From the UHGV virus genome UHGV-0124967: a DNA stretch of 52,734 bases; one strand, given 5' to 3'. The translations under genes were made by a program, and so were the position numbers. Origin of the DNA: a virus. Under the pieces are notes generated by a model. That model searched no databases. It saw only the letters and a program-made list of their open reading frames with translations, and was not told the DNA's origin. Below, piece by piece: positions 24,844 to 33,216 of the stretch (the stretch's first letter is position 1; each line of letters begins with the position of its first letter).

Positions 24844-24939
24844 TCATAATTTACTCTTTACGGTTATCAGCGCAGCAATGACAAAACACACCAGAAATAC
24901 AGAAACACCGATTAGTCCGGCGATGATGTTCTCATCCAT
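24844..24939 (-). CDS. putative small membrane peptide, 31 aa
   Basis: MDENIIAGLIGVSVFLVCFVIAALITVKSKL; ATG 24939 follows stop of the preceding peptide. Confidence 0.3.
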   Translation of the reverse strand: MDENIIAGLIGVSVFLVCFVIAALITVKSKL

Positions 24940-25014: not shown

Positions 25015-25557
25015 TCACCCTCGTTTAAAGCTCATTACGCGCGGCACATACGCCTCTTTTGATTTCGGCTTACGTTTGCCTTTCTTCGCGGGTTTTTCTT
25101 CTTCCTTCGGCTGTTCTGCCTGGTCCATCGCCTGATCTACTACTTCTGCCGCCTGCATTGCTGCAACCTGTGCTTCGTTTGATTCTGCTAGGATAGGGAA
25201 AAACGCATCGAAGATACGGCCTACCATGTAAGCGTAAGTCTCATTCGCCGGATGGGTAGGATCCGTGGTAGCCACGACGCCTACATCACTTAAAACGTGG
25301 AATGTAGTGTGGGCGCATTCATGGACCAGCGTTCCCAACTCATTGTCGAATACTGCGATCACGTAGAAGTTACCACCATTCTCGCCAGTGCAAGTAAGCG
25401 TTAATCCACCAGCCAACTCGAAATCAGGTTCAATCGGAATTCCTGCCTTTTCGCAAAATTCATAGAACATCTCGCGGGTCGGGCAAAAGAAAACGGTTGT
25501 ATGCTCAAAGAGTGGGATCTTAAATTGAGGCAATTTAATGCCTTTAGCCTTAGCCAT
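25015..25557 (-). CDS. hypothetical protein with HExxH motif and lysine-rich C-terminal tail
   Basis: 180 aa; AGGAG RBS; LVHECAHTTFH suggests a zinc-metallopeptidase-like site; tail KEEEKPAKKGKRKPKSKE. Confidence 0.55.
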   Translation of the reverse strand: MAKAKGIKLPQFKIPLFEHTTVFFCPTREMFYEFCEKAGIPIEPDFELAGGLTLTCTGENGGNFYVIAVFDNELGTLVHECAHTTFHVLSDVGVVATTDPTHPANETYAYMVGRIFDAFFPILAESNEAQVAAMQAAEVVDQAMDQAEQPKEEEKPAKKGKRKPKSKEAYVPRVMSFKRG

Positions 25558-25836: not shown

Positions 25837-26307
25837 CTATTCTTTGCGTAAACACTGAGTTTTGATGTAGTCCTGTAGGCCAGTGATCTGTGCGTCTTTC
25901 TCTTTTAGTTGTTCTCTGAGGGATAGATAAGATTGTCTAGCAGTGGCATCAAGCTCGCAGGTGGCTCCATCAATGCGGCTGGCGGTCGCGGCGGGGTCGG
26001 ACACTCGCACGGGTATTGCGTTGACGCGCAACCGGATAGTACCGTTATCAATGCCAGTGCGCAGATCGGCAATGTCAGATCTGATAGCTTTAATCTCATC
26101 GTGATACCTCTTATCAAGTTTTGACAGTTCGGCGTTTCGCTCCTTCATCTGCTGAATAGTGTTACTTGCCGTTTTCAGTGCGCCTTTCGTTACCGTGACT
26201 TCTTCCTGTAACCTTGCCGCCTCACCATGGTAATAACATGTTACGGCGGTCAGTCCGGCAATAATGCAAACAACAGCGGCGATGATTAACGTCTTCACCT
26301 TGTCCAT
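25837..26307 (-). CDS. Rz: i-spanin Rz
   Basis: 156 aa; N-terminal TM segment then coiled coil; directly downstream of endolysin. Confidence 0.8.
25905..26099 (-). CDS. Rz1: o-spanin Rz1 (lipoprotein embedded in Rz, +1 frame)
   Basis: First ATG 26099; lipobox LSGC; Pro-rich mature part; entirely inside Rz. Confidence 0.7.
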   Translation of the reverse strand: MRLKLSDLTLPICALALITVLSGCASTQYPCECPTPPRPPAALMEPPASLMPLLDNLIYPSENN

Positions 26308-26786
26308 GTTTCACCCCATTCGCAAACGGCATACTCAACATCACGGCGATTAATTAACCCTTGCCACTGCTTACCGCCAGCATATATCCAGCGTTTAAGC
26401 TGTGCGCACGCCTCTGATTTCTTACCGTCATTGAGTAGTTTTAATAAGGTTGATGTTTTGAAGTTGGTAGCGCCTACGTTATAGGCGAATGAATAAAGTG
26501 CTGCGCGGGTAAAATCTGATATTTCGACTTTGATATATGGGTCAATCGCTTTTGCGGTCTTGTGTAGATCTTTATTTAACAAAGCATCGCATTCTGATTG
26601 CGTGTAAGTCTTACCAAGCATGATGTCTTTTCCGACGTGTCCATAACATATCGTGTAAACACCGATGACATCTCTGTATGGCTTATACTCAACGCCTTCA
26701 AGATCTTTTATCATCACCGCCGCAATAGCGATCGCCCCACCAGCCGCCGCCGCAACAATCTTGTTTTTCAGCGATTGGCTAATCAT
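26295..26786 (-). CDS. SAR endolysin (T4-lysozyme-like)
   Basis: 163 aa; N-terminal Gly/Ala-rich weakly hydrophobic SAR segment then catalytic region [22 protein letters not shown]; close to phage 21 R as recalled. Confidence 0.9.
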
Positions 26787-26987
26787 TTACTTATTCCCCA
26801 TTCGCGCGTCGTGTTCCTCTTGCGCCCGCTTGTTCTCCTGTGATTTGAAGTAATAATTAACGGCAAATGTGCCTACGGTTGATAAGATACCAACGAAAAC
26901 AGCGATGTCATTGATGGTTATCGCGCCGAAAAAAGCAGTTACGGCCCCAGTCACATACGCACACGCCTCACGTATTCTGTCGAACAT
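26787..26987 (-). CDS. class II holin (pinholin-like)
   Basis: 66 aa, two hydrophobic segments, charged C-terminus; directly upstream of SAR endolysin. Confidence 0.7.
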   Translation of the reverse strand: MFDRIREACAYVTGAVTAFFGAITINDIAVFVGILSTVGTFAVNYYFKSQENKRAQEEHDARMGNK

Positions 26988-26999
26988 GGATTTTCCTCC

Positions 27000-27028
27000 A
27001 ACAAAGCAAAACCCGGCGCGGGGCCGGG
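27000..27028 (-). terminator. intrinsic terminator in late leader (tR'-like)
   Basis: CCCGGC-GCGGG-GCCGGG hairpin followed on minus strand by T-rich TTTTGCTTTGTT, about 20 nt upstream of holin RBS. Confidence 0.5.
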
Positions 27029-27056
27029 TAATTACAATTTCGCATTGTTAGGAAAT

Positions 27057-32305: not shown

Positions 32306-32501
32306 CCTTCACCTCGCGACGATAGATTTCTACTGGCTTAACCGGAATAGCGTTAAAATCACCTTCATCCAGTGCGGCAATAAACGTTAGCGCCAACCGT
32401 GCTTCAACACCGCTTAAATACTTGCACCATGCCTCACCGTTATAATCTTTAAAAAGAATAATCACTTTTTCATGTTTATCTCTTGTTGTTTCATTATTCA
32501 C
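32295..32501 (-). CDS. hypothetical protein, 68 aa, non-ATG (GTG) start
   Basis: No in-frame ATG; begins at GTG overlapping the Q stop. Confidence 0.4.
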   Translation of the reverse strand: MNNETTRDKHEKVIILFKDYNGEAWCKYLSGVEARLALTFIAALDEGDFNAIPVKPVEIYRREVKDEA

Positions 32502-33216
32502 CCCGTGTCACTCGTTTAATTTCGTTATCAGCCCGCGCCTCTTCTTTGAACAATTCAGTAATGGCGTCTTCATAGAAAGCACGGTATTTCTTCCACCACG
32601 TTGATCGGCTTACCGGAAATACAAGCTGATTAACCGCACGCCGGACAAGATCTACAGGGAAACGCGAGTACCCGCGCCCGCCGCAATGCTGGCACGTTTT
32701 GAACACTGGCATTTCCGCTGCTTCACTGGCTGCTTTATCCGGTATCTCGCCGCGCCCTTTGCATCGTTTACAATGATTGCGAACTTTTCCATGCCCCTTG
32801 CATTTTTTGCAAAGGTGTTTTTCTCCGTAGTCGTCAAACGTAAATTTATATCCGCCGCAATCCATACAAGTTTTTTCTGTCGCGGCACTCTGGCAGTAAT
32901 CCCGAAACGCGAAAACGGCAACAAGAATAATAAGATCATTGCGTTTGTCCTCGTCCAACTCCATGACGTATTCGTAATCTTTTGCCATAGCTCTTAAACG
33001 CTCTGTAAGCAAAACTACGGCCCTGTGTTTTTCGGCTTGCGATAATTCCATCTTCCCTAAAAAAGCGCTATAACCAAGCTCTACGCGCGATTGCGCCATA
33101 CCTGCTGCGGTTAGTGCATCAGTAGTATTAAGCGAGTCTGGGGACGTGCCCCGGCTTTCATCTGACAAACGCGGTGATTTTGGGAAGTGGAATTTAAGAA
33201 TAGATTCCAAATTCAT
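32494..33216 (-). CDS. Q: late-gene antitermination protein Q (zinc-finger type)
   Basis: 240 aa; four CxxCxGxG repeats; follows RusA and a small gene as in nin regions. Confidence 0.65.
   Translation of the reverse strand: MNLESILKFHFPKSPRLSDESRGTSPDSLNTTDALTAAGMAQSRVELGYSAFLGKMELSQAEKHRAVVLLTERLRAMAKDYEYVMELDEDKRNDLIILVAVFAFRDYCQSAATEKTCMDCGGYKFTFDDYGEKHLCKKCKGHGKVRNHCKRCKGRGEIPDKAASEAAEMPVFKTCQHCGGRGYSRFPVDLVRRAVNQLVFPVSRSTWWKKYRAFYEDAITELFKEEARADNEIKRVTRGE

Follow-up and report, generated by a model that had tools for sequence, protein, structure and literature searches.

Does the lysis region of the virus genome UHGV-0124967 work in the manner of phage 21, and is its holin a pinholin as its endolysin is a SAR endolysin? 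The window analysed here is the whole stretch of 52,734 nucleotides. An earlier sequence-only reading had placed in it, at 25837-26987, a pinholin/SAR-endolysin cassette with an embedded Rz1, and had judged lysis to be of the phage 21 kind. For the endolysin and the spanins that judgment stands by close homology. For the holin it stands at a greater distance, since the protein belongs to family PF16080, gives no BLASTP alignment with the phage 21 holin S21, and is a remote profile homologue of it. Taking the evidence as a whole, we put at about 75% the probability that this is a late lysis cassette working like the phage 21 system, with a SAR endolysin, a probable pinholin and spanins. On its homologies, the cassette is a normal four-gene lysis unit of a temperate E. 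coli phage; nothing in it departs from known systems, and near-identical copies are already present in public databases. The phage 21 cassette is represented by the curated record OL657228 (S21-R21-Rz-Rz1) and by the R21 structures 3HDE and 3HDF.

Layout of the cassette

All four ORFs are present at the limits that the sequence-only reading had given to the cassette (25837-26987). That reading left the strand unstated; all four genes lie on the minus strand, in the order holin, endolysin, and Rz with Rz1 embedded. The holin gene (26787..26987, minus strand; 66 aa) has a single start codon, with a ribosome-binding site, GGAGG, read from the sequence at 26995..26999 on the same strand and separated from the ATG by a 7-nt spacer. 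The endolysin ATG follows immediately 3' of the holin TAA, and the endolysin gene (26295..26786, minus strand; 163 aa) overlaps that of the i-spanin Rz (25837..26307, minus strand; 156 aa) by 13 nt. Rz1, a predicted o-spanin lipoprotein with a 64-aa precursor, is encoded at 25905..26099 on the minus strand. The lysis-cassette assignment is more than a chance one because every product matches a lysis family, as detailed below for Pfam and PHROG; in NCBIfam, the endolysin and Rz gave sub-threshold matches only, and there is no model for the holin or for Rz1.

An endolysin of the R21 type

The endolysin matches the GH24 / T4-lysozyme-like family PF00959 at 146.6 bits (cut-off 22.3) over profile positions 1-125 of 125, and the PHROG endolysin family at E = 3.4e-62. 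Its best matches among solved structures are RrrD of the E. coli DLP12 prophage (4ZPU, E = 2.2e-63) and the phage 21 lysozyme itself (3HDE, E = 2.4e-62). Both alignments span residues 5-159; because they start at residue 5 they take in the N-terminal segment, including the part experimentally defined as a SAR segment. The SAR-endolysin reading is thus borne out, and a candidate N-terminal membrane-release segment aligned with that of R21 is present where its absence would have told against the idea. The alignment to phage 21 R that had been proposed as a check gave 63% identity to the curated protein over 131 aa, in the catalytic domain, and a 96%-identical protein in nr is already named 'endolysin R21 like protein'.

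The putative SAR segment occupies endolysin codons 9-26 (26709..26762, minus strand). Its description as Gly/Ala-rich and weakly hydrophobic is apt: residues 9-26 are 56% G/A/S/T with a mean Kyte-Doolittle value of 2.11, the corresponding R21 values being 61% and 2.27. The uncharged run is preceded by the basic residues K7 and K9, and the segment is much less hydrophobic than the genuine TM anchor of Rz. Counted by eye in the HMMER alignment, 13 of 23 positions agree with R21 residues 4-26. The Gly/Ala-rich composition and a GG motif are conserved across 118 representatives of the endolysin family.

A motif search placed the catalytic triad at E30-x8-D39-x5-T45, in alignment with its R21 counterparts. 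There is no Cys in residues 1-29, nor indeed anywhere in the first 46 residues, and the combination of this triad with a Cys-free SAR run recurs in 116 of the 118 representatives. Endolysins of the P1 Lyz type carry one Cys in the SAR segment and another at the middle triad position, and those of the Lyz103 type likewise have a regulatory Cys. Without a SAR-segment Cys and with Asp at the middle triad position, the window endolysin therefore falls to the R21 type; the P1 Lyz type, which depends on disulfide isomerisation, was considered and rejected, both of its cysteines being absent. As proxy for the P1 type we took Lys of Haemophilus phage HP1, which is P1-Lyz-like and 27% identical to the window protein, P1 Lyz not being among the best 60 of 543 PDB matches (E <= 1; listed to about E = 0.01).

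One local feature sets the protein apart from R21. The HMMER alignment to R21 contains a 6-residue gap between the SAR segment and the catalytic Glu, and when one motif rule is applied to both proteins, the distance between the uncharged run and the Glu is 3 residues in the window endolysin and 7 in R21. The short linker was entertained as a novelty and dismissed, for it is a common subtype: the 118 cluster representatives include 40 with the short form and 69 with the R21-length form. Near the catalytic triad, the protein also differs from most of its mEpimmI-group relatives by the substitutions P28D, D34K, W44Y and T51V. Overall, the alignments and motifs support an R21-type SAR endolysin that would be activated by refolding.

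An embedded two-component spanin

Rz is recognized by Pfam PF03245 (84.5 bits, cut-off 25.4) and by the Rz-like spanin family phrog_13 (E = 1.6e-40, positions 1-154 of 154), and is 31% identical end to end to the phage 21 Rz i-spanin (E = 3e-18), C-terminal Cys included. It has an N-terminal TM anchor at residues 7-24, with a sum of -2.47 on the Hessa-type scale described below, followed by a coiled-coil periplasmic domain, and carries Cys117 and Cys152.

Rz1 matches the Rz-like spanin family phrog_3198 (E = 7.9e-15) and shares 37% identity with the curated o-spanin of phage 21 (BLASTP E = 8e-13); its score against Pfam PF06085, 26.5 bits, lies just below the cut-off of 27.9. The likely start is the ATG at 26099, the mechanical ORF start being a TTG at 26117. 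This ATG lies 208 nt from that of Rz, and (26307-26099) mod 3 = 1, which confirms the claim of a +1-frame Rz1 nested entirely within Rz. The frame itself bears marks of coding. Within the +1 frame of Rz there are 7 stops in the first 54 codons and then none in 79 codons, exactly at Rz1, and the 64-codon frame is intact in five related phages despite variation at 25 of its 64 residues.

The lipobox, L21-S-G-C24 (residues 21-24; 26028..26039, minus strand), is read from the sequence as had been claimed and is invariant in the six phages compared. Cleaved at LSG|C, Rz1 would be an outer-membrane lipoprotein with a predicted mature form of 41 aa that includes 10 Pro and has Ala at position +2. Under the +2 rule, absence of Asp at +2 directs a lipoprotein to the outer membrane, and the Ala found here therefore predicts outer-membrane sorting. 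Homology and arrangement together support Rz/Rz1 as a two-component embedded spanin of the lambda and phage 21 architecture.

A holin remotely related to S21

The holin belongs to the HP1-holin family PF16080 (54.1 bits, cut-off 28.8, profile positions 1-53 of 56) and to the PHROG holin family phrog_20 (E = 3.7e-20). Against the Pfam P21-S model, PF04971, it reaches 22.9 bits, below the threshold of 26, in a match confined to residues 28-56. Outside the mEp group, the named holin closest to it, with 50% identity over 50 aa, comes from Salmonella phage PS119 (gp13); within the group, it is 100% identical to the MagusPhagus holin.

The alignment to phage 21 S that had been suggested alongside that to R came up blank in BLASTP, as did the pairwise comparison with HP1 Hol, and we therefore turned to profile comparison. 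A word-indexed homologue search with the holin returned just 6 near-identical proteins, too few for a profile. An exhaustive HMMER search of representatives yielded 152 clusters at E <= 1e-3, of which 72 were aligned. In hhalign, the 72-member profile aligned with S21 over residues 2-69 at 97% probability (E = 1.1e-10, score 56.2); this is the only level at which the proposed comparison with S succeeds. The score is far above the controls: 100 whole-sequence shuffles of S21 gave a mean of 10.2 and a maximum of 17.6, 100 shuffles within topological segments a mean of 15.1 and a maximum of 29.4, reversed S21 scored 9.3, and lambda S scored 16.4. The relationship is therefore one of real homology and not merely of composition. 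The same profile matched HP1 Hol at 92.6%. By these profile comparisons, the holin is a remote homologue of S21 and not a close relative, and its family is PF16080.

Is the holin a pinholin?

The claim that the holin is a short two-helix protein holds: within its 66 aa are two hydrophobic 18-mers, residues 8-25 (TMD1) and 28-45 (TMD2), joined by a short N26-D27 turn and followed by a charged C-terminal tail. In mEp021, the orthologue carries the annotation 'class II holin, 2 TM domains', based on TMHMM and Phobius, and the expected orientation is N-in, C-in. TMD1 is 56% G/A/S/T, a composition within the range of proven endolysin SAR segments, with a stripe of small residues conserved in the family at positions 10, 14, 17/18, 21 and 24.

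TMD2 provides the closer link to S21. The second helix of S21 is known for a helix-packing face of small residues, and the holin TMD2 has a similar pattern in A29/G33/T37/T40/N44. In the hhalign register, G33, T37, T40 and N44 fall on S21 S44, G48, T51 and N55. Across the 72 family members, positions 29, 33, 37 and 40 hold small residues in 88-100% of cases (89-100% for the three aligned with S21 S44, G48 and T51), and position 44 is Asn in 69 of 72 (96%).

Two features sit less comfortably with S21. On a Hessa-type scale, on which a lower sum means a more hydrophobic segment, holin TMD1 sums to 1.68, holin TMD2 to 2.68, S21 TMD1 to 6.99 and the R21 SAR segment to 0.26. TMD1 of the window holin is thus far more hydrophobic than that of S21, and about as hydrophobic as its own TMD2 or slightly more; at 1.68 against 6.99, spontaneous exit of TMD1 from the membrane is therefore less obvious. 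The dual-start motif is the other feature. A search of the holin sequence returned a single Met and no in-frame upstream start, although only 7 of the 72 family representatives have a dual-start motif and its absence is normal for the family.

The label 'pinholin' in the sequence-only reading thus gains from profile homology to S21 and to HP1 Hol, and loses from the single start and the more hydrophobic TMD1. HP1 Hol has itself been reported, on experimental grounds, to be a pinholin paired with a SAR endolysin, being lethal without lysis and without leakage of beta-galactosidase (PMC7312051). On balance, the window holin is probably a pinholin too; the assignment is well supported, and it stays an inference because the size of a hole is not readable from a sequence.

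Phage group and transcription

Over 25 kb the window shares about 86% identity with MagusPhagus, mEp044, mEp021 and others, which places it among the temperate E. coli siphophages of the mEpimmI group. For the cassette alone, nucleotide identity to mEp021, MagusPhagus and other members of the group is 88-92%, and the plaque-forming mEp021, mEp554, mEp044, mEp013 and MagusPhagus keep all four genes intact. Among 5426 complete E. coli genomes, 35 carry the cassette, with identities reaching 98.2%, and there PGAP annotates a holin, a lysozyme and the i-spanin Rz. The mEpimmI phages are isolated, plaque-forming phages, and members of the group reportedly equal lambdoid phages in frequency among human faecal isolates (PMC11893012). 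In the main text of that paper the words holin, endolysin, spanin and lysozyme are absent.

Upstream of the cassette, a terminator scan found a G+C-rich hairpin of 7 pairs, 6 of them G-C, followed by a T-run (27011..27029, minus strand), 11 nt upstream of the holin ribosome-binding site. The RNA of 27050-26985 folds at -23.1 kcal/mol (z = -2.8), and the mEp021 record places its 'TERM_5, score 100' at the equivalent point, so that the site resembles an intrinsic terminator. Another 5.5 kb upstream is a gene for a Q-type antiterminator. With a hairpin before the holin and a Q-type gene beyond it, a late, antiterminated transcript probably covers the genes for lysis and morphogenesis. Downstream of Rz are a 180-aa ORF with an HExxH motif, which was considered as a candidate lysis accessory and had no match in Pfam, NCBIfam or the PDB, and then the small and large terminase subunits.

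As an aside on gene starts, the start of the holin or of the endolysin is over-extended in some public records. An 86-aa database version of the holin (P0001) was considered and set aside: its frame extends across the terminator hairpin, and the longer form probably arose in annotation.

Proposed mechanism of lysis

The cassette would act as a late lysis unit, transcribed from the minus strand and lying shortly before the terminase genes. By homology with R21, the endolysin is expected to be exported by Sec and to remain tethered N-in by its SAR segment, with the catalytic domain periplasmic and inactive. The two-helix holin would meanwhile build up in the membrane without doing harm. Once it reaches a set concentration, TMD1, rich in Gly, Ala and Thr, may leave the bilayer, and TMD2 may then oligomerise through the A29/G33/T37/T40/N44 face into small pinholes that collapse the proton-motive force. 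In R21, depolarisation frees the SAR segment, after which the protein refolds into an enzyme that cleaves murein; the window endolysin would follow the same course of SAR release, refolding and murein cleavage. Inner-membrane Rz and outer-membrane Rz1 would span the periplasm and, as their homology to the lambda and phage 21 proteins suggests, remove the outer membrane once murein is lost. The gene would give rise to one holin isoform only, and because there is a single isoform, timing would not be tuned by a dual-start antiholin.

Several other accounts deserve consideration, of which the one closest to the proposed mechanism retains the SAR endolysin as described and changes only the holin. 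Here, the protein would be a class II holin of the conventional kind, opening large, non-specific holes, and its depolarisation of the membrane would activate the endolysin. SAR endolysins can work with large-hole holins and are not known to depend strictly on a pinholin. A TMD1 about as hydrophobic as TMD2 and far more so than that of S21, the missing dual start, and the blank BLASTP comparisons with S21 and HP1 Hol also lend weight to this account. It nonetheless appears unlikely, given profile homology to S21 that runs end to end and exceeds the shuffled controls, the further homology to HP1 Hol, a TMD2 small-residue face conserved in register with the GxxxSxxxG region of S21, and a TMD1 in the range of proven SAR segments (56% G/A/S/T; Hessa-type sum 1.68 vs 0.26 for the R21 SAR segment). 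A more venturesome idea, which we consider quite doubtful, takes either of two forms. The PF16080 holins of mEpimmI-type phages might form a pinholin subtype whose triggering involves no antiholin isoform, which has a more hydrophobic TMD1 and sets its timing differently from S21; or the short-linker SAR endolysin might be kept inactive by membrane proximity and not by the R21 refolding switch.

Much less credible are two accounts that would remove the SAR mechanism, or lysis itself, from the locus. Were the endolysin N-terminus an ordinary cleaved signal peptide, the enzyme would be secreted in soluble form and otherwise regulated; the layout of positive charge followed by a hydrophobic run, and Ala-x-Ala-like strings such as AIAIAA, are what one would expect of such a peptide. 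The SAR segment of R21 is not known to be cleaved, however, and the 13 of 23 positions shared with its residues 4-26 belong to a part of the protein present in crystallised full-length 3HDE; with the Gly/Ala-rich composition and GG motif also conserved in the 118 representatives, cleavage is very improbable. The idea that the four ORFs are what is left of a decaying prophage, without a role in lysis, is less probable again. Its sole link to the data is that the cassette also resides in E. coli chromosomes, and against it stand four intact frames with good start contexts, an intact catalytic triad and lipobox, and the presence of the same genes in isolated, plaque-forming phages (PMC11893012). 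We accordingly retain the phage 21-like cassette, with its SAR endolysin, probable pinholin and spanins, as the preferred reading in what follows.

Comparison with named systems

The cassette shares with phage 21 its gene order, including an Rz1 embedded in Rz in the +1 frame, as well as the endolysin design, since R21 likewise has a SAR segment, a GG motif and an E-x8-D-x5-T triad; S21 is also in the same size class as the window holin, with two TM segments. The differences lie in the holins, S21 belonging to PF04971 and having a dual-start antiholin where the window holin belongs to PF16080 and has none, with a periplasmic turn 6 residues shorter than that of S21; and in the linker between the SAR segment and the catalytic Glu (3 residues against 7). 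DLP12 RrrD, the best solved-structure match to the endolysin, differs in having the R21-length linker and in coming from a defective lambdoid prophage.

Among P22-like phages, the lysis genes compared were genes 13, 19 and 15 of PS119 (AJ011581) and those of its relatives. The N-terminal Gly/Ala-rich segment of PS119 gp19 resembles the SAR segment of R21. PS119 gp13, however, starts MYRMDK, which is dual-start-like, whereas the window holin has a single start, located one codon before the second Met of the PS119 protein. For HP1, the likeness lies in the holin and in its pairing with a SAR endolysin: Hol is the namesake of PF16080 and is without a dual start (PMC7312051), but is only 24% identical to the window holin in the multiple alignment. 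HP1 Lys is of the P1 Lyz type, with a Cys in its SAR segment and an E-x8-C-x5-T triad, and the HP1 spanin is other than that of the window. The mEpimmI phages and the E. coli prophages have the same cassette.

Significance

The cassette opens no new question, and the value of describing it lies mostly in annotation: Rz1 is missing from every GenBank and RefSeq annotation inspected, in related phages and E. coli genomes alike. For the biology of the group, the homologies gathered here indicate that mEpimmI phages lyse their host by means of a SAR endolysin, a class II and probably pinhole-forming holin, and an embedded Rz/Rz1 pair. The natural pairing of an R21-like endolysin with a holin remote from S21 could serve as a comparison case for studies of pinholins.

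Annotation of the lysis genes

Annotation of Rz1, the embedded o-spanin gene, was absent from all of the public records in which it was sought, namely the related phages L001 (mEp021), L002 (MagusPhagus) and L006-L008, and the RefSeq Escherichia coli prophages H88-H95; yet the 64-codon frame, with its LSGC lipobox, is unbroken in every one of the five phages under comparison (L001, L002, L006-L008). The endolysin is lengthened to 205 aa in some records (mEp044, L007, at 995-1612; database protein P0157), by placing its start at an ATG farther upstream, which overlaps the holin in a different frame, and in one record (protein P0001) the holin is drawn out to 86 aa, across the terminator hairpin. 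Both extended versions are probably start-codon mis-annotations, most likely arising from 1-nt indels close to where the genes join.

The start of Rz (window 26307-26320, (-)) also varies within the group. In three relatives the frame begins four codons earlier, with MGGNVDKVK. At that earlier position the window carries an ATG that runs into an in-frame TGA, and the shared position is ATG in the window and GTG in the three relatives with the longer frame. Because the upstream ATG of the window is followed by a stop and the shared codon is ATG or GTG, comparison of the sequences suggests that the shared position is the true Rz start, in the window and its relatives alike.

Relative to most mEp-group orthologues, the window endolysin (26295-26786, (-)) carries six substitutions grouped near the catalytic residues, across codons 28-51: P28D, D34K, V41I, W44Y, V46I and T51V. 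The catalytic triad itself is unaltered, and P28D is held in common with the nr protein P0157.

Reading frames between lysis and packaging genes

Between the lysis cassette and the gene for the terminase small subunit lies a 180-aa ORF (25015-25557, (-)), which is retained in both mEp021 and MagusPhagus. It combines a metalloprotease-like HExxH motif, HECAH, with a strongly basic C-terminal tail. Its PHROG match is phrog_1365, of unknown function, and searches of Pfam, NCBIfam and the PDB returned no match. A 31-aa ORF (24844-24939, (-)), a short way upstream of the small terminase gene, encodes a nearly all-hydrophobic peptide, MDENIIAGLIGVSVFLVCFVIAALITVKSKL; this may represent a small membrane protein or a chance ORF.

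Transcriptional control of lysis

In lambda and phage 21, Q, pR' and S are adjacent. The window, in contrast, places its Q-type antiterminator gene (32494-33216, (-); PF03589, 104.8 bits) some 5.5 kb ahead of the holin, and roughly 20 small ORFs with no known function lie between the two. A strong terminator-like hairpin (27011-27029, (-); 7 pairs, 6 of them G-C), with a T-run to about 27003, precedes the holin RBS by only 11 nt. The matching position in the mEp021 record is labeled TERM_5, and terminator t5, experimentally shown according to the mEpimmI paper (PMC11893012), is a candidate counterpart. The placement of such a hairpin directly before the holin RBS implies that antitermination is probably required for expression of the lysis and late genes.
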